From positions 1,120,001-1,184,000 of the forward strand of contig OY970192.1 of the NCBI GenBank assembly GCA_963708135.1: a stretch of DNA of 64,000 bases, in the 5' to 3' direction. A model generated the notes under the pieces. The model was not told the origin of the DNA and did no database searches. It worked only from the letters and a program-made list of their open reading frames with translations. A program made the translations under genes and the position numbers. The DNA comes from an uncultured Gemmatimonadales bacterium (GTDB taxonomy: Bacteria; Gemmatimonadota; Gemmatimonadetes; Longimicrobiales; RSA9). Positions 26,290 through 54,290 of this stretch are shown one piece after another; positions within the stretch are counted from its first letter, which is position 1, and the number at the start of each line of letters is the position of its first letter.

Positions 26290-26400
26290 GGGCACAAGCC
26301 AACTGCGGCACGACTGACTGCGGCACGACTGACTGCGGCACGATTGACTGCGGCACGACCAACTGCGGCACAAACCAGCTGCGGCACGACCAACTGCGGC
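26290..26400 (+). repeat. Type-A tandem array (~15-bp ACTGCGGCACGAC unit)
   Basis: About 7 units read directly. Confidence 0.9.
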
Positions 26401-26438
26401 CGGAGTCGGGAGGGGGAGTGGCGTCGGTGGGCCGGAGT

Positions 26439-26496
26439 CCCACCGAGCGGCCGGGCTTCGGCCACCGACCCGCGAGCGATCTCCGCCGTCAGGTGG
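26439..26496 (-). pseudogene. Internal fragment of four-helix-bundle gene
   Basis: 26452-26484 matches 51787-51819 at 28/33 nt and translates EIARGSVAEAR versus EIARGSVDETR. Confidence 0.7.
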
Positions 26497-26680
26497 TGTC
26501 GCCTCAGGTGGTGCCGCCTCATGTAAGTGCCGCCTCAAGCAGTGCCGTCTCAAGCCGTGCCCCTCAGGTAAGTGCCGCCTCAAGTAGTGCCGCCTCAAGT
26601 AGTGCCGCCTCAAGCAGTGCCGCCTCAAGCAGTGCCGCCTCAAGCAGTGCCCACCTCGAGCACTGCCCGCCTTCAAGTAG
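26484..26680 (-). repeat. Type-B tandem array (AGTGCCGCCTCAAG on +), inverted relative to the type-A array
   Basis: About 12 degenerate units read directly. Confidence 0.9.
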
Positions 26681-26730
26681 TCGCGGGTGGTCAGGTGGTA
26701 GGAATCGCTCGCGGCGTGCGTGTCATCGGC

Positions 26731-28395
26731 ATGAAACGACGACTGCTCCGCCTCGCCGCCGTGTGCCTGGCCACGGTACCGCTCTTCGGCGCCGTCCGCG
26801 CCGGACCTCCCACCTTCGAGATCTCGTTTGCCGGCGCGGCCCATCCGGGTCCGGTCACGGGCCGGCTCGTGCTCATGATCTCGACGCGGCCCACGCCCGA
26901 GCCGCGCTACCTGGTCTCGGCGCGGGGCCCGGCGGTCTACGGCGTGGACCTCGACCAGCTTCCGCCCGGGCGCTCGGCGACGATCGACGAGCGCACGCTC
27001 GGCGCGCCCGTCTCGCTCGCGGAGCTGCCGCCCGGGGACTATTACGCCCAGGCGGTCCTCAACGTCTACACGCAGCTCCACCGCTCGGACGGCAAGACGA
27101 TCTGGGCGCACATCAACGACGGCTCGGTGGAGTTCTTCTCGACGGCGGCCGGGAACCTCTACAGCGACGTCGTACCCGTCCACATCGGTGATGGGGGCAC
27201 GGTCCGCATCACCATGTCGCACGTGATGCCGGCCGAGCCGGACCCGCCGGACACGAAGTGGCTCCAGCACGTCCGCATCCAGAGCCGCCTGCTCACGGCG
27301 TTCTGGGGCCACCCGGTCTACATCAAGGCGCACGTCCTGCTCCCGCGCGGTTACGCGGAGCACCCAAACACCTACTATCCGAGCATCTACACGCTCGGGC
27401 ACGGGAGCGCGCCGCTCTCCTTCACCACGACGCCGCCAAAGCCGGGCGCGCCGACGGGGGTGAGCCCGGTGACCGGCCTCGAGCCCGGGTACGAGACGTA
27501 CCTGAAGTGGAGCGCGGACGGCTACCCACGCGTCATCTGCATCAGCCTCGAGCAGCAGACGCCCTACTTCCCCGACTCGTACTCGGTGAACTCGGCGAAC
27601 AACGGTCCCTACGGGGATGCCTTCGTCCAGGAGGTGGTCCCCTATCTCGAGAAGCACTTCCGGATCATCGGCAAGCCGTACGCGCGCCAGCTCGAGGGTG
27701 CCTCCACGAGCGGGTGGCAGTCGCTCGCGCTGCAGCTCCGGCACCCCGCCTTCTTCGGCGGCGCGTGGATCTTCCAGCCGGACCCGATCGACTTCACGCG
27801 CTACCAGACGACCGACATCTACGCGGACACGAACGCCTTCTCCGTCCCCAACGGCGAGTTCTTCCCGGCCGTGCGCTACTTCCAGCGCACCACGGAAGGG
27901 CAGGGCGTGATCACGACGCGCCAGCTCAGCCGGCTCGAGGCGGTGCTCGGCTCGCACGGCCGCTCCGGCTACCAGCTCGAGGCGTGGGAGGCGATCTACG
28001 GCCCCGTGGGCGAGGACGGCTACCCCGTGCCGCTCTGGGACAAGCTCACCGGCCACATCGACCACGACGTCGCGCGCTACATGCGCGAGCACGGCTACGA
28101 CCTGACCGCCTACGCGCGGGAGCACTGGCCATCGATCGGCCACGACCTCGTGGGGAAGCTCCACTTCTCGGCCGGCGACATGGACAACTACTGGCTGAAT
28201 CTCGGCGTTTACCGCTTCGAGGACTTCCTGAAGGGAACGGCGAACCCGCACTACGAGGGAGACTTCACCTACGGGCGGCCCATGAAGGGGCACGCCTGGC
28301 ACTCACAGCCGTGGGCGGCCTTCATCCGGCGCGTGGCGGAGCGGATCGAGAGCTCCGCGCCGGCGGGCGAGGACGTGGCCCGGTGGCACTACTGA
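26731..28395 (+). CDS. Exported alpha/beta-hydrolase (putative esterase)
   Basis: Signal peptide, HVLLPRGY, NSANNGPYGD, GASTSG nucleophile elbow, GDMDNY, GH.W. Confidence 0.8.
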   Translation: MKRRLLRLAAVCLATVPLFGAVRAGPPTFEISFAGAAHPGPVTGRLVLMISTRPTPEPRYLVSARGPAVYGVDLDQLPPGRSATIDERTLGAPVSLAELPPGDYYAQAVLNVYTQLHRSDGKTIWAHINDGSVEFFSTAAGNLYSDVVPVHIGDGGTVRITMSHVMPAEPDPPDTKWLQHVRIQSRLLTAFWGHPVYIKAHVLLPRGYAEHPNTYYPSIYTLGHGSAPLSFTTTPPKPGAPTGVSPVTGLEPGYETYLKWSADGYPRVICISLEQQTPYFPDSYSVNSANNGPYGDAFVQEVVPYLEKHFRIIGKPYARQLEGASTSGWQSLALQLRHPAFFGGAWIFQPDPIDFTRYQTTDIYADTNAFSVPNGEFFPAVRYFQRTTEGQGVITTRQLSRLEAVLGSHGRSGYQLEAWEAIYGPVGEDGYPVPLWDKLTGHIDHDVARYMREHGYDLTAYAREHWPSIGHDLVGKLHFSAGDMDNYWLNLGVYRFEDFLKGTANPHYEGDFTYGRPMKGHAWHSQPWAAFIRRVAERIESSAPAGEDVARWHY

Positions 28396-28405
28396 GAGAG
28401 ACGCC

Positions 28406-29161
28406 ATGAGCTCCGACCTCGAGCGCGACGTGCGCTGGCTGAAGCGCTACGCGGCGGTCACCACCGCCGCCATCGTAATCCTCTCGGCGGGCGCGTTCAC
28501 CCGCTCCGAGCAGCACCAGAAGTTCGACGAGATCGACGTGCAGCGCATCAACGTGGTGGAGCCGGACGGCCGCTATCGGCTGGTGATCTCCAACCGCGCG
28601 AAGTCGATCGGGCCGATCTACAAGGGGAAGCCGTTCGGCTACCCGGGCGGCAGCCGGCCCGGGCTGATCTTCTTCAACGACGAGGGCACCGAGAACGGCG
28701 GCCTCACCTTCACCGGCCGCCAGCGGCCGGATGGCACCTACGCGGCCTCCACCCACATGTCGTTCGACCAGTTCGACTCGGACCAGGTGCTGAACCTGGA
28801 CTACGCCGACAACAACGGCCGCCGCCTCGTGGGGTTCTCCGTCAACGACCGGGCGAACGTCAACATCCACGACCTCGTGGTGGAGCGCGACTCGATCATG
28901 AGCATCGCCGACACGGTGGCGCGCGCCGCCGCGCTGCGCCGCTGGGCCGGGCCCCGGAACGGCGTGCCGCTCGTCGCCCAGCGCGTCTTCGTCGGCCGCA
29001 ACCCCTCGAAGGCGGCGGTCGTGAACCTGTCGGACCCGGACGGACACCCGCGCCTGCGGCTGAGCGTCAACTCCCTCGGAACGCCGCGCCTGGAGTTCCT
29101 CGATTCGGCGGGCCACGTGCGCTACAGCCTCCCCGACGAGCGCGAGCCCGGGCACCGATGA
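28406..29161 (+). CDS. Membrane-anchored hypothetical protein (paralog of 34932-35681)
   Basis: LKRYA + TM, IDVQRINVVEPDG, IFFNDEGTENGGL, LSDPDGHPRLRL. Confidence 0.8.
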   Translation: MSSDLERDVRWLKRYAAVTTAAIVILSAGAFTRSEQHQKFDEIDVQRINVVEPDGRYRLVISNRAKSIGPIYKGKPFGYPGGSRPGLIFFNDEGTENGGLTFTGRQRPDGTYAASTHMSFDQFDSDQVLNLDYADNNGRRLVGFSVNDRANVNIHDLVVERDSIMSIADTVARAAALRRWAGPRNGVPLVAQRVFVGRNPSKAAVVNLSDPDGHPRLRLSVNSLGTPRLEFLDSAGHVRYSLPDEREPGHR

Positions 29162-30162
29162 GCTTCCTCCGATTCCGCCGGCGCCGGCCGGCCGCGCTCG
29201 AGGCGCTGATCGAGCGCGCCGTTCGCGGCGAGGCGGGCGAGGCCGAGCTGCGCGAGCTCGAGCACTGGCGCGAGGCGTCGCTTGCCAACGAGCAGACGTA
29301 CCGGCGCACGGTCGAGCTTCTCGCCGCGCTGCGCGGGCTCGAGGCCGTCCGGACCAGCGCGGCGCCGCCGGCGGAGACGCTCCTCTCGGAGCGGGCGGCG
29401 GCACCGGCGGGAGCCGCTCCCGGGCACCGGGCGTGGCGTTGGGCGGCGGCCGCCGTGGTGGTCGTCGGGCTCGGCGTGGCCGCCGCGCACTTCGGGCCGG
29501 CGCCGTCGGGCCCGCCGCGGCCGCCGGAAGGCGCGGGCGCGTGGGGCTACATCACCGGCCCATGGGAGATGGCGACGGTGCACCTACCGGATGGCTCCAT
29601 GGTCCGGCTCGCGCCATCGACGCGGCTGCGGTTCGTCGGCAGCGACAGTGCGCGCGAGGCGACGCTCGAGGGGCGGGCGTTCTTCGAGGTGGCGCACGAC
29701 CCGGCGCACCCGTTCTACGTGCACACGCGCTTCGGCGAGGCGCGCGTGCTGGGCACGCGCTTCGAGCTGACGATGGAGCGCGGCGAGGTGCGGCTCGTCG
29801 TCGCCTCGGGGCGGGTTCGTCTCTCGGGCCGCGCGAGCCGCGTCGAGGTGGCGGCGGGGGAGGCGAGCGAGGTGCGGAAGGGGAAGGCTCTCCACCCGCG
29901 CCACATCGCCGATCCGGCCCGGATGGACGCCTGGGTCGGGAAATATCTCGCCTTCCAGTCGACCCCGATGCCGGAGGTGCTGCGCCAGATCTCCGACGTC
30001 TACGGCGTCCGCGCGGTGGCCACGGATTCGGTCGTGGCCGCGCGCACCGTCACCGGCTCGTTCGCCGATCAGGACCTGGCCCACGTCCTCGACGTGGTCT
30101 GCGCGATCGTCGAGGCCCGGTGCGAGACGCGCGGCGCGACGATCCTGGTCTCGAGCCGCTAG
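29158..30162 (+). CDS. FecR-family anti-sigma factor
   Basis: LPDGSMVRL, LEGRAFFEVAHD, RVLGTRF, central TM helix. Confidence 0.9.
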   Translation: MSFLRFRRRRPAALEALIERAVRGEAGEAELRELEHWREASLANEQTYRRTVELLAALRGLEAVRTSAAPPAETLLSERAAAPAGAAPGHRAWRWAAAAVVVVGLGVAAAHFGPAPSGPPRPPEGAGAWGYITGPWEMATVHLPDGSMVRLAPSTRLRFVGSDSAREATLEGRAFFEVAHDPAHPFYVHTRFGEARVLGTRFELTMERGEVRLVVASGRVRLSGRASRVEVAAGEASEVRKGKALHPRHIADPARMDAWVGKYLAFQSTPMPEVLRQISDVYGVRAVATDSVVAARTVTGSFADQDLAHVLDVVCAIVEARCETRGATILVSSR

Positions 30163-30234
30163 CGCAGTGATTCCGGGGCACCCGGTGCCCCGTCCGCACC
30201 CGCGATCCCTACTCGACTCGCGAGGAGCCTGGCC

Positions 30235-33200
30235 ATGAGCACCTCCCATGCGCGCCGCGCGCGCCTTCCGATCACCGTGATGCTCGCGATCCTCGCCTCG
30301 GCCGCCTGGAGCGGCGCGAGGGCGGCGGCCCTCGTTGTCCAGGGACCGGAGCGCACCCCCCTCGACCGACCCGCCCGGCTCGACGTGCACGACGTGCCGC
30401 TCGGCACGGCGCTCCGGACGCTCGCCGACCGCTCGGGCGTCCAGCTCGCCTACAGCCCGAGCCTGCTGCCGCTCCAGCTGCGGGTGAGCTGCCCGTGCCG
30501 GGCCGCCACCACCCGCCAGGCGCTCGAGCTGCTGCTCAGGCGGACCGGCTACACGGCGCGCGAGTCCGTCCGCAACGTGATGATCGTGCCGGCCGACCCG
30601 GCGGCCGCCCGGCCGCTCGATCCTTCGGCGCAGCCGGATGCCGCCTCGCCGCGACTGTCGCTGAGCGTGCCGGCGCCCGCCGCCGCGCGCATGCGGGCGC
30701 CCGGCACCATCACCGGCCAGGTGACGGCTGCCGAGACCGGTGAAGCGATCCCCGCCGCGAGCGTGATCATCGAGGGATCGCAGCTGGGCGCGATCACGGG
30801 CGAGGACGGGCGGTATCGGATCGGCGGGGTCCCGGCCGGCCCGCAGACCGTGACCGTGCGGCGCATCGGGTACGTGGCGGCGAGCCGGCCGGTGACGGTC
30901 CCCGATGGCGGAGCTCTGAGCGTGGACTTCTCGCTCAAGACCTCGGCGGTCAACCTGCAGCAGATCGTGGTGACGGGGACGGCCGGCAACCAGACGCGGG
31001 CCGCGCAGGGGGCGGTCGTGGCATCGGTCAATGTGGCCGCCCTGACGTCCAAGGCGCCCGTCTCGTCGGTGACGGAGCTCCTGTCGGGGCGGGTGTCGGG
31101 CGTGAACGTGACCACGGCCTCGGGGACCGTGGGCGCGGCGCCCCGCATCAACATCCGGGGCGCGGCGTCCATCTCGCTGTCGAACGCCCCGCTCGTGTTC
31201 ATCGACGGCATCCGGGTCTCGAGCGAGTCGCGCACCGACGTCGGCACCTACCACGGCCTCGAGCAGCTGGGCGGGCAGTCGGTCACGGCGCTCAACGACC
31301 TGAACCCCGACGACATCGCGAGCATCGAGATCGTCAAGGGACCAGCGGCGGCCACGCTCTACGGCGCGGACGCCTCGGCGGGCGTGATCCAGATCGTCAC
31401 CAAGAAGGGGCGCCTCGGCAGCCATGCCTTCGTGCAGAACGCCTCGTTCGAGTGGAACGTCGTGGATCCGAACTTCACCCCCTACTCGGTGTTCGGCACG
31501 TGCAGCGCGGGCCTGGTCGGGCCCGGCGGGCCGGCGCTGTGCCAGGGGCTCTCGGCGGGGAGCGTCGTCTCGGACAACCCGCTGGTGCGGGAGGGCGTGT
31601 ACCGGAACGGCCACCTCGAGTCGCTGGTCTACGACGGGCACGGCGGCGGGGACAACTTCGGCTACTACGTCTCCGCGAGCGCCACGGACGAGAAGGGCAC
31701 GACGCCGAACAACTCCTACACCCGGCGCACCGGCCGCGCGAGCTTCAACTGGGCCGTGGGGCGGCAGCTCGGCATCGACTTCACCGCCGGGCTGAGCCGC
31801 AACGTCTACAAGCTGCCGCAGGGCGACGACTCGCAGTACGGCTACCTTGCGGATGGCGAGTTCGAGTCGAGCCCGTTCGCGGTGCAGCTCGACGCGAACG
31901 GCAACCGCACGGGCGGCGCGGCGTTCCCGATCGTCGGGCTGACGCAGATCCGCGACGAGCTGACCACGCTCCGCTTCACGCCCTCCGCGCAGGTGCACTA
32001 CGCGCCGGTGAGCTGGTTCACGAACCGGCTGACGCTGGGCGCCGACCTCTCTTCGACCCACGGCGTCACGTTCTTCCCGACCAGCACCGAGAACTGGTAC
32101 AGCGGCGACCAGGTCAACGGCTACGTCGAGGACGTGCAGAACCCGATCGACATCTACACCGTGGACTACCTGGGCGACCTGCGCGCCAGCATCCACGGCG
32201 TCCAGTCGGACTTCTCCTTCGGCAGCCAGTACATCATCAACACCCACAACTACCTGGCCGGCGTCGGGATCGGGCTGGCCACGAACTCGGCCAACCTGGT
32301 CTCCTCCGCCTCGACCAACGAGTCGCACCAGACCTACGCGCAGACCAAGTCGTGGGGCCTCATCGGCCAGGAGCAGCTGGCGTTCGGCCAGCGCCTCTTC
32401 CTCCAGATCGGCGCCCGCATCGACCAGAACTCCTCCTTCGGCCAGGCCTACGGCGCCTTCTTCCTGCCGAAGGCCAGCGTCTCGTACGTGATCTCGCAGG
32501 AGCCGTTCTGGAGGCGCTTCGCGCCCGTCGTCTCCACGCTGCGGCTGCGTGCCGCGTACGGCACCACGGGCCGCTCGCCCACTCCCGGCGCCTCGCTGCG
32601 GACCTACGCGCCGGCGCCGTACGTGACCGCCACGGGAGGCGTCGGTCCCGGCGTCGTGCAGGCCAGTCCCGGCAACGCCGATCTGAAGCCGGAGCGAGGG
32701 AAGGAGTTCGAGGCGGGCTTCGACGCCGGCTTCTTCGACGAGCGCGCGGGCATCGAGCTCACCTACTTCGACAAGCGCACCTCCGACCTGCTGCTCGTCA
32801 ACCCGCTGGCGCCGTCGCTGGCCTATACGGTGAACCCCTTCGTGAACGCGGGCGCGGTGGACAACCGGGGCCTGGAGCTCACGCTGCGCGCGACGCCGAT
32901 CGCCGGTCCGCGCGCCACCTGGGACATCAGCTTCACCGGCAACACGCTGCGCAACCGGCTGACCAGCCTCGGCTCGCTCGCGATCCCGGACCAGAGCTGG
33001 ATCTTCCCCGACCTGACGACCCGCTACGTGATCGGCAAGCCGCTGAGCGCGTGGTACTCCAAGAAGATCCTCGCCGTGGACACGGCGGCCGGCTACGCCA
33101 CCGTGACGGACGGCCCCGTCTACTACGGCTCGCAGTTCCCCAGCTTCCAGGGCAACCTGAGCAGCACGCTCACGCTCTTCCACAACCTGCGCCTGTACGG

Positions 33201-33651: not shown

Positions 33652-33662
33652 AGGAGACGCCC

Positions 33663-34922: not shown

Positions 34923-34931
34923 AGGCCCGCC

Positions 34932-35681: not shown

Positions 35682-35928
35682 GCCGGCCGGGTCGGGCCGC
35701 GTAGCCTTCCCACCGCCCGCCGGGCGGTGAGCCCGCTCCCCGGCCGGAGGTCACCGCGCACCATCCCGCCGCTGCGGCTCCGGCGGCGCATCTTTCTGGT
35801 GGTCCGCGCCCCTTCGTCCTAGCTTTCCCGCATGGCTGAAGAGCAGCGACGCGACCATCGCTGCACAACCCCCTTCCGTAGCCCCTCTACGGGAACCGCC
35901 CGGCCACCGCTGCGACGGAGGTGAGCCC

Positions 35929-37224: not shown

Positions 37225-37242
37225 GGGGTGCCAACCCCCCCC

Positions 37243-37433
37243 CGACTGATTGCGGCACGACCCACTACGGCACGACCGACTGCGGCACGACCCACTACGG
37301 CACGACCGACTGCGGCACGACCAACTGCGGCACGGCCAACGGCGGCACACCAACTGCGACTGACTGCGGCACGACCCACTACGGCACGACCGACTGCGAC
37401 TGACTGCGGCACGGCCAACTACGGCACTACGGC
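37243..37433 (+). repeat. Type-A tandem array
   Basis: CTGCGGCACGAC / CTACGGCACGAC units. Confidence 0.9.
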
Positions 37434-37455
37434 GTGAACGGCTGCGGGTAGGCTC

Positions 37456-37785
37456 TTGGGGGCAGCCTGGCGGTCCAGGAAGAAAGCAATCGTCGCGGTC
37501 GTGACGGTCAGCGCGGTGGCCCTCGCGAATCGCGGTGGGCTCGCGCCCACCACGAGCGGCCAGGACTCCGCAGAATCGCTCGGGGGTCCTGCCGAGCCGC
37601 GAGCGGACCTCCAGGTGGTTGCGCTTTGCGCCCCGGCTGCTCGCACCCGTACGCCTCGGAAATCTTGTACTGGCCGGGAACCCCGCCGCGCGCCGAGTCT
37701 GGTCAACGTCCGGGCCGAACCCCGGCGGAAGCAGCTCGATCGGCGCGTGCCCACCTCGGCACCGAGCGCGCTCAGCCGCCAATGA
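37456..37785 (-). pseudogene. Frameshifted four-helix-bundle gene
   Basis: Colinear DNA similarity to 51663-51990; fragments LLPPGFGPDVDQTRRAAG, KRNHLEV and RATALTVT lie in different frames; N-terminus absent. Confidence 0.82.
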
Positions 37786-37807
37786 TGCGCGGTTGGCTGC
37801 GCCGTCC

Positions 37808-38106
37808 GCCGCCGCAAGGAGTGCCGCCGCCAGGAGTGCCGCCGTAAGCAGCTGCCGCCGTAAGCAGTGCCGCCGTAAGCAGTGGCGCCGCCGTAGGTAG
37901 TGCCGCCGTAAGCAGTGCCGCCGTCGGTAGTGCCGCCGTAAGCAGTTGCCGCCGTAAGCAGTGCCGCCGTAAGCAGTGGCGCCGCCGTAAGTAGTGCCGC
38001 CGTAAGGAGTGCCGCCGTCGGTAGTGCCGCCGTAAGCAGTTGCCGCCGTCCGTAGTGCCGCCGTAAGCAGTTGCCGCCGCAAGAAGTGCCGCCGCCGTAA
38101 GCAGTG
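37808..38106 (-). repeat. Type-B tandem array (GYAGTGCCGCCGTAA on +)
   Basis: About 19 units of 15-18 bp. Confidence 0.92.
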
Positions 38107-38176
38107 TCTCCCCCGAGGGCCGGGGGGGGGACGGCCTTCCGCGGTCCAAGACGTGATCCTTGACTTTGTGCCCCCT

Positions 38177-43294: not shown

Positions 43295-43434
43295 CGGTGA
43301 CCGACGACCCCGGCACGACCGGCCGGCGCGCCTCCGGGCCCGCCGCCCCCGTGCGCGGCCTCCGCCGCGCGCCGCAGCGACTCAACCGTGTCCGTCCGCG
43401 GGCACACTCCATCTCTCCACGCAAGGAGCAGACA

Positions 43435-45945: not shown

Positions 45946-45949
45946 GCGC

Positions 45950-47026
45950 GTGGCTCGCGGGCGGGGCGGGCAGGACGGGGCGCCGGCGGTCGGCATCGTG
46001 GCCGTCGGCACCTACCTGCCCGCCGGCCACCTGACGGCCGCGGACATCGCGCAGGCGTCCGGCATCCCGGAGACCGTCGTGGTGGAGAAGCTGGGCATCA
46101 CCCGCAAGACGGTCGGCTCGCCGGACGAGCACCCGAACGAGATGGGTGTGCGCGCCGCGCTCGACTGCCTGGCCGCCGCTCCGGTGCCGGCGGAGGAGAT
46201 CGACGTCGTCCTGTGCACGACGGAGGAGTGGAAGGAGTACCCGGTGTGGACGGCGGGCATCGACCTGGCCGACCGGATCGGCGCCCGCCGCGCCTGGGCC
46301 GCCGACGTCCACATGCGCTGCGCCGGCACCGTCGGCGCCATGAAGATGGCGCGCGACATGATCCGCTCCGACCCCGAGATCCGGCACGTCCTGATCGCCG
46401 GCGGCTACCGCATCGCGGACCTGATCGACCTCGGCGACGCGCGCACCTCGTTCCTCTTCAACATCGGCGCGGGCGCCGGCGCCATGCTGCTCTCCCGGGA
46501 CTGGCCCCGCAACGAGGTGCTCGGCAGCCACATCATCACGGACGGCTCGCTCAGCCGCAGCGTGGTCGTCCCGGTGGGCGGGACGCTGCGGCCCCTCACG
46601 GCCGGCGCGGACCCGGCCGACTTTCACCTGACCCTCGTCGAGCCGGAGCGGATGAAGCGGCGGCTGGACGAGGTCTCCATGGACAACTGGCTGATGTGCG
46701 TGGACGAGGCGCTCCGCAGGAGCGGCACCCGCCCCGACGGCCGGCCGTGGACGCGCGCCGACCTGGACTACCTGAACATCCTGCTGATCAAGCCGTCCGC
46801 GCATCGCGAGATGCTGGCCCGGCTGGGGATGGACGAGACGCAGTCGTGCTACCTCGGCGAGATCGGCCACATCGGCGAGCAGGATGCGATGTTCTCGATC
46901 CGCGAGGGGCTCCGCACCGGCCGGCTGCGCGACGGAGGGCTCATGGCCATCGTGGCCGCGGGGATCGGATACGTCTGGGCGGCGGGGGTGGTGAGGTGGG
47001 GGGAAAGGGAAGGGGGAACTGCTTGA
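45950..47026 (+). CDS. 3-oxoacyl-ACP synthase III-like (thiolase fold)
   Basis: GTYLP, catalytic MRCAG, GAGAGAMLL, GHIG, AAGIGYVWAA. Confidence 0.85.
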   Translation: MARGRGGQDGAPAVGIVAVGTYLPAGHLTAADIAQASGIPETVVVEKLGITRKTVGSPDEHPNEMGVRAALDCLAAAPVPAEEIDVVLCTTEEWKEYPVWTAGIDLADRIGARRAWAADVHMRCAGTVGAMKMARDMIRSDPEIRHVLIAGGYRIADLIDLGDARTSFLFNIGAGAGAMLLSRDWPRNEVLGSHIITDGSLSRSVVVPVGGTLRPLTAGADPADFHLTLVEPERMKRRLDEVSMDNWLMCVDEALRRSGTRPDGRPWTRADLDYLNILLIKPSAHREMLARLGMDETQSCYLGEIGHIGEQDAMFSIREGLRTGRLRDGGLMAIVAAGIGYVWAAGVVRWGEREGGTA

Positions 47027-47208
47027 AGCGGCACTACATAAACCGGCACTACACAAACCGGCAACTGCTCAAACCGGCACTACACAAACCGGCACTGCAT
47101 AAACCGGCAACTACTCAAACCGGCACTACATAAACCGGCACTACACAAACCGGCAACTGCTCAAACCGGCACTACACAAACCGGCACTACGTGAACCGGC
47201 AACTGCTC
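47025..47208 (+). repeat. Solo type-B array: 4 x 46-bp higher-order repeat (15+15+16)
   Basis: AAACCGGCACTACAY, AAACCGGCACTRCAY and AAACCGGCAACTRCTC units. Confidence 0.92.
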
Positions 47209-47235
47209 GAGGCGGCAGGACACGGGGGGGAACGG

Positions 47236-48000
47236 ATGCGGTTGAAGGACAGGGTGGCGCTCATCACCGGGGGCGCGGCGGGGATCGGGCGGGCTGCGGC
47301 GGAGCGGTTCGCGGAGGAGGGAGCCCGGGTCGCCATATGCGACGTGGACGAGGCGCGCGGGCGGGAGGCGGCGGCGGGACTCGGAGCGGACGCGAGCTTC
47401 GACCGGGTGGACGTGGCCGACCGGGCCAGCGTGCAGGCGTGGGTGGACGGGGTGCGGGCGCGGCTCGGACGGATCGACATCCTGGTGAACAACGCGGGGA
47501 TCGTCCGGGACGCGCAGCTCGTGAAGTTCCGGGACGGCGAGCTGGTCGGGCAGATGGCCGAGGCGGACTGGGACCAGGTCATCGCGGTGAACCTGAAGGG
47601 GACGTTCAACTGCGGCCAAGCGGCGGCCATCCACATGGTGCGCCAGGGGGGCGGCGTGATCCTGAACGCGTCCTCGGTGGTCGGGCTCGACGGCAACTTC
47701 GGCCAGACCAACTACGTGGCCACCAAGGCGGGGGTGGTGGGAATGACCCGCACCTGGGCCCGCGAGCTCGGCCGCTACGGCATCCGCGTGAACGCCGTGG
47801 CGCCCGGGTTCGTGGCCACGGAGATCCTCTCCGCCATGCCGGAGAAGGTGCTCGCCGGGATGCGCGCGCGCACGCCGCTCGGCCGCATGGGCGAGCCGCG
47901 CGAGATCGCCAACGCATACCTCTTCCTGGCCTCCGACGAGGCGGCCTTCGTGACCGGCGCCGTCCTGCGCGTGGACGGCGGCCTCGTGGTCGGGACCTGA
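47236..48000 (+). CDS. fabG: 3-oxoacyl-ACP/CoA reductase (SDR)
   Basis: [32 protein letters not shown]. Confidence 0.85.
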
Positions 48001-48019
48001 GGGGAAGGGAGGCACCTCC

Positions 48020-49567
48020 ATGCACGCGGGCGACCTGCTGACGCACCGGGCGCGCATGACCCCGGACGCCGAGGCGCTCCTCGAGCTGCACACCGGCCGG
48101 CGCTACGGCTACCGCGAGCTGAACGAGCGCGCCTGCGGCGCGGCCAACTTCCTGCGCGAGCGCATCGGAATCCGCGCCGGCGACCGGGTGGCCGTGCTGG
48201 CGCACAACGGCGTCGCCTGCCTGGACCTGCTCTACGGCGTCGCCAAGATCGGCGCCATCCTGGCCCCGCTCAACTGGCGCCTGAGCGCGCCCGAGCTCGC
48301 CTTCATCCTCGGCGACATGGAGCCCGCCGTGCTCCTCGCCGGCCCCGAGTTCACGGGCGTGCTGGACGAGCTCGCCGCCGCCACGGCGCTGCCGGCCATG
48401 GTGGCGCTCGACGGCGCGCCCATCGCGGGCGCCGCGGACTACGAGGCGGAGCTCGCGCGCGCCTCAGCCGCCGAGCCGGCGCGTCCCCCGCTCGATGCCG
48501 GGACGCCGTACTGCCTGCTCTACACCTCAGGCACGACCGGCACACCGAAAGGCGCGGTGCTGCCGCACCGGCAGGTGCTCTGGAACTGCATCAACACGGT
48601 CGTGAGCTGGGGGCTGCGGCCCGACGACGTGACGCCGGTCTTCACGCCGCTCTTTCACACGGGCGGCCTCTTCGCCTACCTGGCGCCGGTGCACTACGTG
48701 GGCGGGCGGGTCGTGCTGGCGCGAGGGTTCGACGCGCAGGCGTCGCTTCGCACGATCGTGGAGGAGCGCTGCACGGTGGTCCTCGGCGTGCCCACGATCT
48801 ACCGCATGTGGATGGACGCGCCCGGCTGGGCGGAGGCGGACTTCTCCCACGTCCGCAACTTCAACAGCGGTGGCGCGCCGTGCCCGCCCGAGCTCATGGA
48901 CCGCTGGCGCCGCGACAAGGGCGTGGTGTTCCGCCAGGGCTACGGGCTCACCGAGGTCGGCCCCAACTGCTTCAGCATGACCGACGCGCAGTCCCTCGCC
49001 AGGTCCGGCTCCGTGGGCACGCCGATCCTGAACAGCGCCATGCGCCTCGTGGACCCCGCCACCGGCCGCGACGTCGGCACCGACGAGCCCGGCGAGCTGT
49101 GGATCTCCGGGCCGCACGTCTGCGCCGGCTACTGGCGCCGCCCCGAGGCCACCGCCGAGGCGCTGGTCGACGGCTGGTTCCGCACCGGCGACATGTTGCG
49201 CCGCGACGCCGACGGCTTCCACTACGTCATCGGCCGCTACAAGGACATGATCAAGAGCGGCGGCGAGAACATCTACGCCGCCGAGGTCGAGGCGCTCTTC
49301 CGCCAGCACGACGCCGTGGCCGACGCCGCCCTCATCGGGCTCCCGGACGAGACGTGGGGCGAGGTCGGTCTCATGGTCGTGGTCGCGCGGCCGGGCGCAC
49401 GCTGCACGCCGCAGGAGCTGCTCGACTTCTGCCACGGCCGCATCGCCCGCTACAAGATCCCCCGCCGCGTGGTCTTCGCGGACGCCCTGCCCTACTCCGC
49501 CTACGGCAAGGTGCTCAAGGCGGAGCTGCGCCGGATCCACCTGAGCCCCATGGAAGGCGACGCATGA
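48020..49567 (+). CDS. Acyl-CoA synthetase (AMP-forming)
   Basis: YTSGTTGTPKG, GYGLTE, GWFRTGD, SGGENIY. Confidence 0.92.
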   Translation: MHAGDLLTHRARMTPDAEALLELHTGRRYGYRELNERACGAANFLRERIGIRAGDRVAVLAHNGVACLDLLYGVAKIGAILAPLNWRLSAPELAFILGDMEPAVLLAGPEFTGVLDELAAATALPAMVALDGAPIAGAADYEAELARASAAEPARPPLDAGTPYCLLYTSGTTGTPKGAVLPHRQVLWNCINTVVSWGLRPDDVTPVFTPLFHTGGLFAYLAPVHYVGGRVVLARGFDAQASLRTIVEERCTVVLGVPTIYRMWMDAPGWAEADFSHVRNFNSGGAPCPPELMDRWRRDKGVVFRQGYGLTEVGPNCFSMTDAQSLARSGSVGTPILNSAMRLVDPATGRDVGTDEPGELWISGPHVCAGYWRRPEATAEALVDGWFRTGDMLRRDADGFHYVIGRYKDMIKSGGENIYAAEVEALFRQHDAVADAALIGLPDETWGEVGLMVVVARPGARCTPQELLDFCHGRIARYKIPRRVVFADALPYSAYGKVLKAELRRIHLSPMEGDA

Positions 49568-50664
49568 CAACCGAAACCTCACCGGCGCCGACCCTCACGG
49601 GGGTCGAGGCCCGCACGGTCCGCTCCTCCCGCCTCGCCACGCGCGTGCTCTTCTCGGGCCGCGCCGACGGCGTGCCCGTCCTCTTCCTCCACGGCAACCT
49701 GAGCTCCGCCACGTGGTGGGAGCAGACGATGCTCGCGCTGCCGGACGGCTTCCGCGCCATTGCGCCCGACCAGCGCGGCTTCGGCGAGGCCGACTCCGCC
49801 GCCACGATCGACGCCACCCGCGGCCTCGCCGACCTCGCGGACGACGCCTTCGCGCTCCTCGACGCGCTCGCCATCGCGCGCGCGCACGTCGTCGCGTGCT
49901 CGCTCGGCGGCGGCGTCGTCTGGCGCATGCTCGCCGACGACCCCGCGCGCATCCTCTCCGCCACGCTCTCCGCCCCCGGCTCGCCGTACGGCTTCGGCGG
50001 CACCATCGACGCGGAGGGCACGCCCGCCTGGGGCGACCACGCGGGCAGCGGCGCCGGGCTCGTCCACCCCGAGCTCGCCCGCCGCCTCGCGGAAGGCGAC
50101 CGCTCCGCCGACCACCCGCTCTCCCCGCTCAACGGGCTCCGGCGCCTGGTCTGGAACCCGCCGTTCATCCCCGCCCGCGAGGCCGCGCTGCTCGACGCCA
50201 CGCTGCGCACTCACCTCGGACGCGACGCCTACCCCGGGGACGCCCAGCCCTCGCTCAACTGGCCCTTCTTCGCCCCCGGAATGCGCGGCCCGAACAACGC
50301 CATCTCGCCCGCCTACGCGGGAGGCGTCGAGCGGCTCTGGGAAGGCGACGCCGCGCGCCCGCCGATCCTGTGGATCCGCGGCGACCGCGACCTCGCCGTC
50401 TCCGACGCCGCCGCCTCCGACCCCGGCACCCTCGGTCGCTTGGGGCTCATCCCCGGCTGGCCCGGAACCGACGTCTTCCCGCCGCAGCCGATGCTGCGCC
50501 AGACCCGCCGGGTGCTCGAGCGCTACGCCGCCGCGGGCGGCGCGTTCCGGGAGCACGTCATGCCCGGCGCGGGCCACGCCCCGTTCCTCGAGCGCGCGGA
50601 GGAGTTCGACGGACTGCTGCACGCAATGCTCCGCGAGCCGGTGGGGACGGTGAAAGATGGTTGA
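49564..50664 (+). CDS. Alpha/beta hydrolase
   Basis: LHGN, PDQRGFG, ACSLGG, GHAPFLE. Confidence 0.88.
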   Translation: MTTETSPAPTLTGVEARTVRSSRLATRVLFSGRADGVPVLFLHGNLSSATWWEQTMLALPDGFRAIAPDQRGFGEADSAATIDATRGLADLADDAFALLDALAIARAHVVACSLGGGVVWRMLADDPARILSATLSAPGSPYGFGGTIDAEGTPAWGDHAGSGAGLVHPELARRLAEGDRSADHPLSPLNGLRRLVWNPPFIPAREAALLDATLRTHLGRDAYPGDAQPSLNWPFFAPGMRGPNNAISPAYAGGVERLWEGDAARPPILWIRGDRDLAVSDAAASDPGTLGRLGLIPGWPGTDVFPPQPMLRQTRRVLERYAAAGGAFREHVMPGAGHAPFLERAEEFDGLLHAMLREPVGTVKDG

Positions 50665-51472
50665 AAGGACGGCGGACGGCGGCACGACGAACACCGGCAC
50701 GACCGACACCGGCACGACCGACACCGGCACGGCTGACGGCGGCACGACGAACACCGGCACGACCGACACCGGCACGACTGACGGCGGCACGACGAACACC
50801 GGCACGACCGACACCGGCACGACTGACGGCGGCACGACTGACGGCGGCACGACTGACGGCGGCACGACCGCCGGCGGCACGACCAGCCTCGGGGTGGGGA
50901 GGGCGGGGCCGGGCGCGAAGGGGTTGACCGTACTGGCCACGTTGGCATACATCCGCCGCACGGCCGGGGAGGAGCGGATGGAGGCGGTGCTCGGGCGGCT
51001 GCCCGAGAAGGCGCGGCGGGGGCTGAAGGGAATCGTCGCCACGGAGGAGGTGCCGTGGCAGGTGCTGTCGGGGCTGCTGCGGGCCGCCGATGCGGTGCTC
51101 GCGGCGGACGACCCGGGCTGGATCGAGGCGGCCGGTGCCTACGCGATCGAGTCGCTCGGGGTGGAGTACTACGGCGGGATACTGCGCAAGAAGAGCCCGC
51201 TCGAGTTTCTCATGCAGCCCGTCTCGCTCTTCCAGCTCTACTATCACCCCGGCAACATGGAGGTGGTCGAGGCCGGCACCGGCCTGGCCGTGCTGCGGCT
51301 GGTCGGCTTCGAGCACGGCAACGTCCTCTTCTGCCGCCGCCAGACGGGCGGCCTGCGCCGAGCGCTCGAGCTCGCGGGCGGCCGCCAGCCGACCGTCCGC
51401 CACGTTCGCTGCACCGAGGACGGCGACGGCTACTGCGAATGGGAGCTGCGCTGGGGAGAAGCGGGGGAGTAA
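50657..51472 (+). CDS. Hypothetical protein with V4R-like C-terminus; N-terminal repeat in frame (alternative start GTG 50894)
   Basis: KG motif, then C...G...ALELAG and HVRCTEDGDGYCEWELRW. Confidence 0.7.
   Translation: MVERTADGGTTNTGTTDTGTTDTGTADGGTTNTGTTDTGTTDGGTTNTGTTDTGTTDGGTTDGGTTDGGTTAGGTTSLGVGRAGPGAKGLTVLATLAYIRRTAGEERMEAVLGRLPEKARRGLKGIVATEEVPWQVLSGLLRAADAVLAADDPGWIEAAGAYAIESLGVEYYGGILRKKSPLEFLMQPVSLFQLYYHPGNMEVVEAGTGLAVLRLVGFEHGNVLFCRRQTGGLRRALELAGGRQPTVRHVRCTEDGDGYCEWELRWGEAGE
50681..50884 (+). repeat. Solo type-A array: 13 full 15-bp GGCACGAC units plus a partial unit
   Basis: Read directly; translates as (GTTDT/GTTDG/GTTNT)n. Confidence 0.92.
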
Positions 51473-51481
51473 GGGGCGGGA

Positions 51482-51630
51482 GCACAAGCTGACTGCGGCA
51501 CGGCTGACTGCGGCACGACCGACTGCGGCACGGCTGACTACGGCACGGCTGACTGCGGCACGACCGACTGCGGCACGGCTGACTGCGGCACCACCAACTG
51601 CGGCACCAACAGCGGCACGGCTGACCGCGG
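51482..51630 (+). repeat. Type-A tandem array
   Basis: GACTGCGGCACGRCY units. Confidence 0.92.
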
Positions 51631-51662
51631 GCGGACTCGGGAGCGGGGGGGCGGGGCTGCTT

Positions 51663-52010
51663 TCAGGGCGGTAATGTCGCGGACCAGGAAGTAAGCATCT
51701 TCGCAATCGTCACGGTCAGCGCGGTGGCCTTGGTGATTGCGGCAGGCTCGAGCCCACCGCGATTGGCCAGCCGGCGCAGGATCGCGCGGGTTTCATCCAC
51801 TGAGCCGCGAGCGATCTCCAGGTGGTTGCGCTTCCGGCCTGGCTGCTCGGATCCGTACGCCTGGGCAATGTTGTACAGGACGGATCCCGCTGCGCGGCGA
51901 AGCTGGTCGATGTCCCTGCTGAAGCCCGGCGGAAGCCGCGCGATCAGCACGTGCACCTCCGCGTCGAGCCGCTCCGCCGCCTGGTACACCCGTAGCCGTT
52001 CGAAGCTCAT
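51663..52010 (-). CDS. Four helix bundle protein (23S rRNA IVS / Avd-like)
   Basis: 115 aa: FERLRVYQ.A, DQLRRAAGSV..NIA, HLEIARGS..E. Confidence 0.9.
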   Translation of the reverse strand: MSFERLRVYQAAERLDAEVHVLIARLPPGFSRDIDQLRRAAGSVLYNIAQAYGSEQPGRKRNHLEIARGSVDETRAILRRLANRGGLEPAAITKATALTVTIAKMLTSWSATLPP

Positions 52011-52198
52011 GGCCGAGGATGGCTGCGCGATCGGGGCACCGCCATGCCCGTCGGGGACGATGCTCGTGCCGCTCGAGTAGCCGCCGCCGGGATCCACGGA
52101 AGGGGCCTTGATCGCCGGACGGAGCGCCGCCAGAAGGCGCAGATCGGGTTGGACGACGCCCACCAGTGGACGCACGCGCTGCACGATCAGCACCTCGA

Positions 52199-52582
52199 CT
52201 ACCAGGGCGCTCCGCCCTCCCGGCGCTTGGTCCACAGGTCCGAGCTCGGGCCGGTAGGCACTCCCCCCGCCGCTTTCAACTGCTTCTGACGCTGGTGCCT
52301 GACGCGAAGGACCCACGCGGTGTCTTCGGGACGTCGTAGAGAACTCGGTATCCGTTCGAGAGTATGACGTTCCGGACGTCGCGACCCCAGGCGGCACGCT
52401 CCGGCGCGTACGGGTGACGCTTCGCGAACTGGTCCAGGCGGTGGATGCCCTCCATGACATCCTCGAACCACCGATCCGGAAACTCGACGCTCACCTTGCC
52501 TGAACGCGCTCGGGCTTCGAGTTCCTGGTGGATCCGCTCGAATGTCTCGCTCTGCCGATGGAGCGACGCCGATGGCGTACAC
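52199..52582 (-). pseudogene. RelE/ParE-family toxin, frameshifted
   Basis: Fragments YAIGVAPSAERDI / WFEDVMEGIHRLDQFAKRHPYAPE...VRNVILSNGYRVLYDV / TAWVLRVRHQRQ in different frames. Confidence 0.72.
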
Positions 52583-52613
52583 CCGCTACCGCGCCCGCCG
52601 CCGGACGTTCAGC

Positions 52614-52672
52614 CCGCCTCAAGTCGTTGCCGCCGCAAGTAGTGCCGCCGTAGAAGCAGTTGCCGCCGTAAG
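52614..52672 (-). repeat. Short type-B array
   Basis: CCGCCTCAAG, TTGCCGCCGCAAG, GTAGTGCCGCCGTAG, GCAGTTGCCGCCGTAAG. Confidence 0.8.
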
Positions 52673-52686
52673 AGCCGTCCCTCCTC

Positions 52687-53478
52687 TCAGCCGGGTGCTT
52701 TCACTCCCGCGAGCACGTCGATCACGGCTGCGGGGTCCCGCAGCTCGCGGGCGCGCACGACCCAGAGGGCCGCGGTCAGCGACGGTCCAGGGTTCAGGAT
52801 CCGCCGCCCGAGCTGCTCGACGATCCGGTCCTGCAGCGCCACCTGCGCGTCGAATCCGGCGGGCGTCTCCGCGGCGAGGAGCTGCGCCGCCTGCCACGCC
52901 GTGCCGCGTGTCGCGGAGAGGCCGAAGGCGGCGAGTCGCTCGTCCTCGCGGCCCGCGAGCGCGTCCAGCAGCCCGGACCACGGCGAGATCCGGTTCAGCC
53001 GCTGCTGCACGGATTCGATCATTCCGTCCAGCAGCGTGGTGATCTCGCGGAAGTCGCGCTCGAGTCCCGGCAGCTGCGCGCCGGGCGAGGTCCTGGCCGC
53101 CGCGATCGCGAGGTCGAGGTTGATGTGCGCGTTCATCCCCGCGAGCAGGTGCTGCAGCACCACGGGTGGCCAGGTGGCGGCGGCGCGGAACGCGAGTGCC
53201 CAGCTGCGCGTCGTCTCCTGTCCGGCACGCTGACGCCAGAGCGCGTCGAGGTAGCGGCCCGCGAAGAGGACGTCGAGCCGCTCCATCCTCGCGCCATCCA
53301 CGAATCGGCCGCCGGCGATTCCGCGCTGGACCTCCGCCGTGACGCCACGGTAGAGGACGGCGAAGTAGCCGAGCCGGCTGCGCGTCCGGCGGCACTCATC
53401 CACGACGCGGTCGAGCTCCTCGAGCACGCCGTCGATCGTGGCCGGCAGGAGTCGGGTGTCGACGTTCGGCAAGGGCAT
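52687..53478 (-). CDS. DUF5995-family protein
   Basis: RLGYFAVLY..VT, LDVLFAGRY, LLAGMNAHINLDL. Confidence 0.8.
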   Translation of the reverse strand: MPLPNVDTRLLPATIDGVLEELDRVVDECRRTRSRLGYFAVLYRGVTAEVQRGIAGGRFVDGARMERLDVLFAGRYLDALWRQRAGQETTRSWALAFRAAATWPPVVLQHLLAGMNAHINLDLAIAAARTSPGAQLPGLERDFREITTLLDGMIESVQQRLNRISPWSGLLDALAGREDERLAAFGLSATRGTAWQAAQLLAAETPAGFDAQVALQDRIVEQLGRRILNPGPSLTAALWVVRARELRDPAAVIDVLAGVKAPG

Positions 53479-53601
53479 TACCTGGACCCGCTTCTTGGGG
53501 GGGGAATTTCGGCCGCCCGCGGACCCCCGGGGGGGAAGGGGGCCCGGGCACCAAGGTAGGGCGCGTGGCTCCGTTTGGGGATGGTCTTAACCACGAGGTG
53601 C

Positions 53602-54099
53602 CGGCGCGACGGACTACGACCGACAGCGGCACGACCGACTACGGCGAACTGCGGCACCACCGACTGCGGCACCGCCGACCGCGGCACGACCACTACGGCG
53701 AACTGCGGCACGACTCGCTGCGGCACCGCGGACTGCGGCATGACGGACTGCGGCACCGCCGACTACGGCACGACGGACTACGACCGACAGCGGCACGACC
53801 GACTACGGCGACCTGCGGCACGACGCACTACGGCACCGCCGACTGCGGCACGACGGACTGCGGCACCGCCGACTGCGGCACGACGGACTGCGGCACCGCC
53901 GACTGCGGCACGACGGACTGCGGCACCGCCGACTACGGCACGACCAAATACGACCGACTGCGGCGAACTGCGGCACGACTCGCTGCGGCACCGCGGACTG
54001 CGGCACGACGGACTGCGGCACCGCCGACTACGGCACGACGGACTACGACCGACAGCGGCACGACCGATTACGGCGACCTGCGGCACGACTCGCTGCGGC
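53602..54099 (+). repeat. Long type-A array with internal ~125-bp duplication
   Basis: 53701-53824 is nearly identical to 53966-54089. Confidence 0.92.
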
Positions 54100-54141
54100 C
54101 AGGCTCGTGAGCCGCGCCGGAGTGCGGCACCTACTGCTCGT

Positions 54142-54290
54142 CCCGCCTCAAGTAGTGCCGCCTCGCTGCCGCCGCAGGTGGTGCCGCCGTAGGTAGTGCC
54201 GCCGTAAGGTAGTGCCGCCGTAAGTGGTGCCGCCGTAAGTAGTGCCGCCGTAAGCAGTGGCGCCGCCGTACGCAGTGCCGCCGTATGCAG
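54142..54290 (-). repeat. Type-B tandem array
   Basis: GTAGTGCCGCCGTAA units. Confidence 0.9.

Follow-up and report, generated by a model that had tools for sequence, protein, structure and literature searches.

Facing 15-bp tandem arrays around PF05635 four-helix-bundle genes: a probable family of repeat-hairpin cassettes in a Gemmatimonadota genome

Why do four loci within a single 64,000-nt stretch of a Gemmatimonadota genome (5.45 Mb) each consist of two tandem arrays that face one another, with an intact gene, a ruined gene, a fragment of it or nothing in between? The gene belongs to PF05635, a large and widespread family for which we know of no function outside diversity-generating retroelements (DGRs). 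The short dispersed tandem repeats of bacterial genomes are, to our knowledge, largely unexplained as well, and the stretch, hereafter called the window, links the two.

A common layout of the four loci had been proposed in a sequence-only reading, and Tandem Repeats Finder located facing arrays at the same positions; its boundaries are slightly narrower at W3 (51488-51630 facing 52614-52672) and W4 (53616-54107 facing 54167-54285) than those listed below. The loci, termed W1 to W4, are four of the genome's nine convergent pairs of 15-bp arrays with a GCGGCAC core. Their array units are about 15 bp long: the type-A unit is CTGCGGCACGACYRA on the + strand and the type-B unit is GGCGGCACTRCTTRMG on the - strand, with a 16-bp variant that contains CGGCAACTGC. 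The window contains the following features.

26291..26400, + strand: type-A arm of W1, roughly seven 15-bp units, preceded by the terminal motif GCACAAGC at 26292
26401..26482, - strand: W1 inner segment, junction motif CGGAGTCGGGAG and then about 60 nt left over from the four-helix-bundle gene (its NHLEIARGS region)
26483..26681, - strand: W1 type-B arm, about 13 units
37243..37433, + strand: W2 type-A arm, about 10 units, 30-bp higher-order period
37440..37800, - strand: W2 four-helix-bundle pseudogene, about 75% DNA identity to W3, several frameshifting indels, start region absent
37808..38106, - strand: W2 type-B arm, about 18 units of 15, 16 and 18 bp, 94-bp higher-order period
47017..47217, + strand: solo array of B-like type (CGGCACTACACAAAC), with a FabH-like gene on one side and an SDR gene on the other
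50680..50885, + strand: solo array of A-like type (CGGCACGACCGACAC) with 13.7 units and no indels, sharing the reading frame of ORF 50657-51472
51482..51630, + strand: W3 type-A arm, downstream in the sense of the gene, beginning with GCACAAGC
51663..52013, - strand: W3 intact four-helix-bundle gene, 116 aa, PF05635 and TIGR02436
52202..52608, - strand: W3 toxin-antitoxin remnant, end of a Phd/YefM-like antitoxin and a RelE/ParE-like toxin, frameshifted after ...YDVP
52613..52672, - strand: W3 type-B arm, upstream in the sense of the gene, only about 3.6 units, beginning with CCCGCCTCAAGT
53602..54107, + strand: type-A arm of W4, with about 32 units longer than any other arm in the window
54142..54290, - strand: W4 type-B arm, about 9 units, beginning with CCCGCCTCAAGT

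The two solo arrays had not been listed before, and no inverted partner of the array at 47017-47217 was found within 2 kb. The arms of a single cassette differ in higher-order period, which points to independent growth of the arms.

The cargo forms a series of decay, and the earlier description of it (an intact gene plus toxin, a frameshifted copy, a short internal remnant, almost nothing) held in all parts except the toxin. W2 carries a homologous but degenerate copy, a pseudogene that has many indels and lacks the start region, W1 retains about 60 nt of the gene (E 0.025), and W4 consists of arms 34 bp apart with a cargo-free spacer. In W3 the PF05635 gene is intact, whereas the putative toxin is a frameshifted RelE/ParE-like remnant; it gave no Pfam or NCBIfam match, and the one indication of its nature is a tblastn alignment (E 3e-3) in which it is 34.6% identical to a toxin annotated as RelE/ParE together with the final part of that toxin's antitoxin. 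The remnant sequence matches a short-read contig. A type II toxin-antitoxin system with intact frames was rejected as the second cargo of W3, given the frameshift and the lack of a profile match. A search of W3 for promoter-like or terminator-like sites returned none. Wherever a gene or remnant is present (W1 to W3), it is oriented from B to A (3/3).

Recurring junctions outside the repeat unit, also noted in the first reading, were confirmed at W1/W3 and W3/W4. In the whole genome the motif CGGA[CG]TCGGGAG has just two occurrences, one at W1 and one at W3; CCCGCCTCAAGT also has just two, one at W3 (52613, a one-base shift from the figure first given) and one at W4. GCACAAGC is itself common, with 101 genome hits as an 8-mer, and adjoins an array at W1 and W3 only. 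W1 and W3 have the edges of the A arm in common on both ends. As two motifs are found exactly twice each in 5.45 Mb and always at cassette edges, the cassettes have spread as units; shared termini at unrelated intergenic sites bear out the term 'family of cassettes'. W1 to W4 are one family, a pattern that fits a cassette first spreading as a whole and decaying afterwards. In a check for target-site duplications, TCGCGGG was present on each side of W1 and nothing comparable was seen at W3.

Across the genome, the spaced triplet GCGGCAC-N6-9-GCGGCAC-N6-9-GCGGCAC occurs 140 times and its reversed control 0 times. A whole-genome search for CGGCAC-core chains identified 37 chains. All nine close pairs of chains are convergent (+ then -) and none is divergent; 17 further chains are solo, so that arrays are not limited to cassettes. 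A/B arms make up seven of the nine pairs, with A matched to B in each of the seven, and variant units are found in the pairs P5 and P8. A PF05635 gene or its remains lies inside four of the nine pairs, with 12 PF05635 hits in the whole 5.45 Mb. The scatter in random orientation, with no enrichment near four-helix-bundle genes, that would have spoken against a cassette family was therefore not observed.

The protein encoded in W3 matched PF05635 with 63.6 bits (cut-off 33.8; residues 5-109 of 116) and TIGR02436 with 58.7 bits (cut-off 24), above both curated cut-offs for the four-helix-bundle (IVS/Avd-like) family. A phmmer search against PDB sequences gave 0 matches at E 0.01 or better. The second intact copy used for comparison, at P8 (4811476-4811820 of this genome, G000), has 82% amino acid identity to W3 with a dS of 0.60; the dN/dS of 0.22 shows that purifying selection keeps the two copies intact. 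A motif R-x3-S-x3-N-x2-E is conserved in the family (PMC3936711). R40, S44 and N48 are present in W3 and position 51 is Q; the family's near-invariant E51 is retained in P8 and in at least 90% of 11 aligned sequences.

To compare PF05635 loci at large, the upstream flank of each gene was aligned with the reverse complement of its downstream flank, and a score above 17, the 99th percentile of 400 random controls, was taken as positive. Complementary tandem arrays were found on both sides of 10 of the 11 loci in this genome, the single miss being W3, where the B arm is set off by 580 nt, beyond the toxin-antitoxin remnant. The test was also positive at 25 of 28 loci in relatives of the same order and at 26 of 30 loci across the phylum. 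The design of a gene between complementary arrays holds for nearly all PF05635 genes of the genome and its relatives, and our literature search found no paper that describes PF05635 genes packaged in this way. Array units vary from copy to copy and their type tracks the gene lineage (W3 with P8; genome G107 with G119), which indicates that gene and arms are inherited together. The nearest foreign homologues, in G107 and G119, have 60-62% identity and arms of 13-15-bp units of the GCGGCAC type.

The arms had been expected to pair into a long imperfect duplex around the cargo. Minimum free energy folds do pair them, with z-scores of -2.5 and -3.7 that are modest (2 of 100 shuffles fold as well as W1), and arm-to-arm cofolds contain 42-170 inter-arm pairs. 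In both kinds of fold, base pairing between the complementary flanks closes a stem around the ORF. Unit by unit, about 12 of 15 positions can pair, one G-U included. Mismatches compatible with G-U pairing numbered 123 in the sense and 119 in the antisense direction (16 loci to 12, with 8 ties; transversions exceeded transitions), a test that gave no signal of RNA-specific pairing.

On this evidence we consider it rather probable that W1 to W4 are one lineage of repeat-hairpin cassettes, in which the arms pair, the gene lies in the loop, the package spreads and the gene decays. A complete cassette would run from an upstream type-B array (GCGGCAC core in the sense of the gene) through the PF05635/TIGR02436 gene to a downstream type-A array (core inverted). 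The sequences show this package copied as a unit into unrelated intergenic sites; the gene later decays or is lost by deletion, while the arms remain and change length by local tandem duplication. Persistence of the arms after gene loss leaves gene-less hairpins and possibly solo arrays. The working form may be a stem-loop in single-stranded nucleic acid, either a transcript or ssDNA. The four-helix-bundle protein may act on or with it, perhaps by recognising the conserved core of the repeats, a step that is purely conjectural. The relationship would be selfish or semi-autonomous, with a layout like that of REPIN-RAYT systems. The window shows the life cycle of such a cassette side by side, with an intact copy, a pseudogene, a remnant, an empty hairpin and solo arrays all present.

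The alternative that survives best, which we regard as unlikely, is that the arrays are host-level intergenic hairpin repeats, comparable to REP/BIME elements or mRNA stabilisers, that originate and expand by slippage independently; PF05635 genes would merely insert into them or be retained there, and the empty pairs would never have held a gene. Five of the nine pairs are indeed empty and these, like the 17 solo chains, are intergenic, so the gene may not be needed for arrays to exist and spread. Arrays of the same core stand as arms without a gene between them in genomes G018, G001 and G217, the commonest short tandem-repeat units of this genome occur at many gene-less sites too, and one inverted array pair encloses only a Phd/YefM-PIN pair. 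However, random insertion of genes would not be expected to place arms at 10 of 11 own and 25 of 28 related loci, nor does a host-level origin account well for unit types that follow the gene lineage, or for W1, which has both A-arm edges in common with W3 and still holds a piece of the gene.

The repeat-hairpin cassette could also be extended into a claim that we put forward only tentatively and hold to be doubtful, namely that PF05635 and inverted arrays constitute a new self-propagating system with a REPIN-RAYT-like layout. A non-nuclease four-helix-bundle protein would read the conserved core of the hairpin-forming arrays (here GCGGCAC) and promote copying, spread or maintenance of the arrays at the DNA level, without RNase III or reverse transcription, and the gene-less hairpins and solo arrays would be its non-autonomous offspring. 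If this were true, much of the short tandem repeat content of many bacterial genomes would have an explanation.

A third explanation draws on the 23S rRNA intervening sequences (IVS). Excerpts of PMC4990558 describe the ORF-bearing ones as carrying a PF05635 gene in a stem loop, as being regarded as selfish and as tending to lose the ORF by decay; their excision by RNase III is covered in excerpts of the same source and of PMC8708148. By analogy, the arms would form in mRNA a double-stranded stem cut by RNase III, which would free the loop RNA and separate the host transcripts. The long stem in the predicted folds agrees with this, and a PF05635 gene in the loop of a stem of complementary flanks is what the cassettes have in common with the IVS of Leptospira and the S23p IVS of Coxiella burnetii. 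Nevertheless, the RNase III profiles PF14622, PF00636 and TIGR02191 gave 0 hits in the host genome, and tblastn with three RNase III proteins of the same phylum gave a best E of 0.63. No TIGR02191 match turned up among 41 genomes of the order or 42 of the class, compared with matches in 18 of 19 genomes of sister classes, yet the cassettes are common in this class, where 38 of 42 genomes have PF05635 genes. Since the host lacks RNase III, excision as in 23S rRNA IVS cannot be the mechanism here; the explanation is contradicted for canonical RNase III, finds no excess of G-U-compatible mismatches and is improbable overall. Of the earlier proposal of a non-autonomous mobile or excisable cassette, the excisable half falls in this sense. 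Further differences from 23S rRNA IVS are that the cassettes lie between protein-coding genes (Rfam finds nothing in 25000-56000), that their stems are long arrays of 13-15-bp units instead of short unique sequences, and that the protein they encode is subject to purifying selection. For rRNA maturation, too, it is noteworthy that RNase III is absent across the class Gemmatimonadetes.

That the arrays are coding, as pentapeptide repeats (GTTDC or GTTDT) of neighbouring genes, is very improbable and would leave the paired arrays unexplained. The frame GGC-ACG-ACC-GAC-TGC places G or C at each third position, there is a weak Pentapeptide_2 match (E 0.042), and the indel-free solo array at 50680-50885 is read in frame by ORF 50657-51472, whose ATG overlaps the upstream stop; the conserved domain of this ORF, however, starts only past the array. 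Units of 16 and 18 bp are present in the paired arrays, whose indel content is 2-16%, type-B arrays have TAA or TAG on the + strand, and most arrays lack a long high-GC3 ORF across the repeats.

The idea that the protein is the Avd accessory of a DGR, with arrays related to template and variable repeats, can practically be dismissed: the excerpted text of PMC10053308 places Avd in a homologous four-helix-bundle fold family and ranks PF05635 first in frequency among the Pfam families in the neighbourhood of DGR reverse transcriptases, but PF00078 has no match in the whole single-contig genome (97.65% complete) despite its 12 PF05635 hits, and the cassette genes stand alone inside inverted arrays. 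The proposed link to Avd therefore keeps its homology and loses its DGR role. As first reported, the window has no transposase, reverse transcriptase or integrase (0 of 43 scanned ORFs match such families), and we found no enzyme that would mobilise the cassettes. With neither RNase III nor reverse transcriptase in the host, any account of the gene-in-hairpin design must do without both. The absence of these two enzymes is a new result, as are the purifying selection, the unique shared junction motifs and the null result of the wobble-pair test.

Two other known systems resemble the cassettes. REP/REPIN elements with a RAYT transposase, reportedly the subject of Nunvar 2010 and of Bertels & Rainey 2011, also have one small gene flanked by inverted repeats, together with gene-less inverted doublets and singlets dispersed between genes, the counterparts here being the empty pairs and solo chains. 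The likeness is one of layout only: the cassette protein matches PF05635/TIGR02436 and no HUH/Y1 transposase family, and its repeats come as tandem arrays, where REP elements are single palindromes. Unlike the cassettes, an IS21-family insertion sequence present in three copies in the genome carries its own transposition genes, IstA/IstB; its multiple subterminal repeats likewise form inverted motif arrays at both ends.

The genome is a single contig of 5.45 Mb with 72% G+C. Using Tandem Repeats Finder and direct reading, the four loci with a shared facing-array layout were found as the sequence-only reading had described them. In each, a type A array with a unit of about 15 bp and the core CTGCGGCACGAC on the + strand stands opposite a type B array on the - strand that reads GGCGGCACT(A/G)CTT.... 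The GCGGCAC-core arrays considered here are as follows:

26291-26681, A arm + strand, B arm - strand, cassette W1
37243-38106, A arm + strand, B arm - strand, cassette W2
51482-52672, A arm + strand, B arm - strand, cassette W3
53602-54290, A arm + strand, B arm - strand, cassette W4
47017-47217, solo array in the window
50680-50885, solo array in the window
2.49, 2.96, 3.74, 4.81 and 5.05 Mb of the genome, close array pairs P5 to P9

Three GCGGCAC cores at 6-9 nt spacing occur 140 times in the genome (0 for the reversed control pattern), and a genome-wide search for chains of the CGGCAC core gave 37 chains, with nine close pairs and seventeen chains standing alone. Orientation was not random in this search, as all nine close pairs were convergent and none divergent; A faced B in 7/7 cassettes whose units could be recognised as A and B. 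Solo arrays lay in sense with respect to neighbouring genes in 10 cases and antisense in 6, showing no clear bias. The arrays at 4896825 and 4901016 were rejected as one cassette and counted as two solos, being 3.8 kb apart with ordinary genes between (judged from a GC3-based ORF call and inspection of translations). The two arms of W2 differ in their higher-order period (30 bp on the left, 94 bp on the right), which indicates growth by local tandem duplication and not by mirrored copying. Contigs of run X1 differ from window 53868-53898, inside the W4 A arm, at three positions with a 15-bp spacing; these differences could stem from heterogeneity of the array or from contigs assigned to the wrong repeat unit.

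The W3 gene (51663-52013, - strand, 116 aa, intact) was confirmed by profile search as a member of the four-helix-bundle family, with 63.6 bits for PF05635 (cut-off 33.8) and 58.7 bits for TIGR02436 (cut-off 24). Its paralogue at P8 has 82% amino-acid identity and is flanked by 14-bp arrays with the GCGGCAC core. In W2 the homologue is a pseudogene, disrupted by several frameshifting indels and missing its start region, W1 retains about 60 nt from where the gene is most conserved, and the arms of W4, P5, P6, P7 and P9 are 13-74 bp apart with no trace of a gene. In W1, W2 and W3, the gene or what is left of it runs in the B-to-A direction. The W3 and P8 genes, both intact, show a dS of 0.60 and a dN/dS of 0.22, and the protein has therefore been kept by selection. 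No match was found for the W3 protein among PDB sequences at E 0.01 or better, a scan of W3 found neither promoter nor terminator, and an Rfam search of window 25000-56000 found no family.

W3 had also been read as carrying a toxin next to the intact gene. This second part did not stand: the stretch between the gene and the B arm is a decayed toxin-antitoxin remnant whose frame is broken after ...YDVP. It matched neither Pfam nor NCBIfam and was recognised solely by tblastn (E 3e-3), through similarity to a toxin annotated as RelE/ParE and to the end of the accompanying Phd/YefM antitoxin. The frameshift is found in identical sequence in a short-read contig of run X1, which may be the genome's own assembly sample. 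Logan contigs from three DNA runs gave low and fragmented cover of the window, including an exact match to 51658-52519 and another contig matching 54038-54302. Elsewhere in the genome (L071, G000:C1:212936-214311), inverted 7-bp arrays, GATGCGG versus GCGTCCC, surround a PIN-domain toxin together with a Phd/YefM antitoxin, and the interval contains no remnant of PF05635; thus toxin-antitoxin pairs can be the sole cargo of a repeat hairpin.

The recurring non-unit junctions were located by genome-wide search at the array edges of W1/W3 and W3/W4. The motif CGGA[CG]TCGGGAG occurs twice in the genome, both times at the inner edge of an A arm (W1 and W3), CCCGCCTCAAGT occurs twice, both times at the inner edge of a B arm (W3 and W4), and GCACAAGC adjoins an A arm on its outer side at W1 and W3 only. 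The host genes around the cassettes are unrelated (a sigma factor and an esterase, a LacI-type regulator, DUF5995, an amino-acid permease). This is most simply explained if entire cassettes were copied into new intergenic sites and lost their cargo later. The nearest relatives matched by the DNA around W3/W4 and W1 belong to other genera, at 67-73% identity and without conserved synteny, and the best match among metagenome contigs to the DUF5995 gene, located between W3 and W4, was 58% identical. Against genome contigs, the W3 protein as query gave no match and a four-sequence alignment reached two Gemmatimonadota MAGs only.

The arrangement extends beyond the A/B family. PF05635 matches were found at 12 places in the genome, and nearly every locus is flanked on either side by tandem arrays, mutually reverse-complementary and built from units other than A/B, for example CCCACTCT/GAGAGTGG, GGGTGA/ACCCTC, ACGGGC/TGCCCG, AGGGGCAGGT/ACCTGCCCCT and TGGTTG/AACCCA. 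Flanks were scored by local alignment of the 450 nt upstream with the reverse complement of the 450 nt downstream, with a threshold of 17 corresponding to the 99th percentile of 400 random controls. This threshold was exceeded in 10/11 loci of this genome, the miss being W3, because the toxin-antitoxin remnant pushes its B arm 580 nt away. It was also exceeded in 25/28 loci from other genomes of the order (23/26 when the unpublished genomes G146 and G084 are left out) and in 26/30 loci across the phylum, a set that includes L160 of the unpublished genome G208. Outside this genome, the closest homologues of the W3 protein, in genomes G107 and G119 (60-62% identity), have arms of 13-15 bp units with a GCGGCAC-like core, and the arm units of more distant paralogues are unrelated; gene and arms were therefore inherited together. 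A literature search, whose reach stopped short of subscription journals, found no paper on PF05635 genes between inverted tandem arrays; passages of PMC3936711 describe PF05635 genes wedged within cas operons, and the family goes unmentioned in the HEPN survey PMC3710099.

Genome-wide, the short tandem-repeat units found most often (ACCCTC in 17 arrays, ACTCTCCC in 10, AAAACC in 8, plus others) are those flanking the other PF05635 genes, and they also occur at many gene-less sites. PF05635 cassettes may be the source of much of its microsatellite-like DNA. At G000:C1:3234426-3234980, a higher-order repeat adjoins a PF05635 gene (3235055-3235360); its 141-bp unit is present in 3.9 copies of 96% identity, each with a CCCACTCT run. 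The region G000:C1:2369145-2370787, bounded by GCAAGA and CTTGCC arrays, holds two partial PF05635 matches (profile positions 1-54 and 56-105) separated by 1.3 kb, which resembles a gene interrupted by an insertion. In G119 (L059, G119:C11:2700-3466), a W3-like four-helix-bundle gene, inside which the contig ends, is preceded at about 70 nt by a pair of 13-bp GGCGGCAC arrays that is complete but empty. In draft genomes, many PF05635 matches are located at the ends of contigs, a pattern to be expected if short-read assemblies break at the arrays.

The proposal that A and B arrays pair into a long imperfect duplex was borne out in minimum-free-energy folds of W1 and W2, with z-scores of -2.5 (2/100 shuffles as good) and -3.7 (0/20), respectively. 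Between an A and a B unit, 12/15 positions pair, one of them as G-U. A wobble test for RNA-specific pairing at 36 loci gave no bias, with 123 mismatches that would be G-U in the gene-sense transcript versus 119 in the antisense only (16 loci to 12, with 8 ties), and transversions outnumbered transitions. Cofold energies of sense and antisense arms were mixed, the - strand being better in W1, W2, W4 and P7 and not in P6 or P9, where sense would be the + strand. The complementarity is thus symmetric between strands and is as compatible with a DNA-level structure, or with common descent combined with concerted evolution, as with an RNA stem. The GCGGCAC core is kept across genera while the remainder of the unit drifts; to judge from this pattern, the core could be a protein-binding site or merely the strongest helix segment, frozen.

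Passages of PMC4990558 and PMC8708148 describe RNase III cutting the stem around the ORF of 23S rRNA intervening sequences. In contrast, the cassettes studied here reside in a host without RNase III: PF14622, PF00636 and TIGR02191 had no match in the genome, and three RNase III proteins of the phylum, used as tblastn queries, reached a best E of 0.63. Excision as in these intervening sequences is ruled out for this genome, as the enzyme is not encoded. TIGR02191 matched 0/41 genomes of the order, 0/42 of the class and 18/19 of the other classes of the phylum, and from these profile searches RNase III looks to have been lost class-wide in Gemmatimonadetes; among the papers listed by a literature search with the same reach, none tied such a loss to this class. 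PF05635 genes are present in 38/42 genomes of the RNase III-less class versus 7/19 in the others, and inverted flanks in 22/24 versus 4/6 sampled loci. As the genomes are kin, these counts lack independence, yet they point clearly one way, hairpin packaging being independent of RNase III. An Avd-like role is likewise ruled out: Avd, a PF05635 homologue, assists the reverse transcriptase of DGRs according to passages of PMC10053308, whereas PF00078 has no match across this genome.

Combined, these results confirm the observation and support in part the proposal of a non-autonomous mobile or excisable cassette: shared junctions at unrelated sites fit copying as a unit, and RNase III-type excision is contradicted. 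With moderate confidence, we favour a semi-autonomous hairpin-bounded cassette in which the PF05635 protein would act together with the arms of its own cassette; hairpins that lack a gene would be its relics or non-autonomous copies, as perhaps would the solo arrays. The window is an unusually complete instance of this design, which is undescribed in the literature searched, and adds the constraint that the design works in a lineage that has neither RNase III nor reverse transcriptase.

The inverted-array scan also caught three copies of an IS21-family element (L072; G000:C1:1833047-1835698, 3221053-3223703 and 4286986-4289636), a conventional transposon with IstA (Mu-transposase C domain), IstB and inverted 23-bp subterminal repeats at its ends. 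Finally, the solo array 50680-50885 consists of 13.7 units with zero indels, in frame with a V4R/HNOB-like ORF (50657-51472) whose ATG overlaps the stop codon upstream. If translated, the array would place about fourteen GTT(D/N)(T/G) pentapeptides ahead of the conserved domain; the alternative is a 5' leader.
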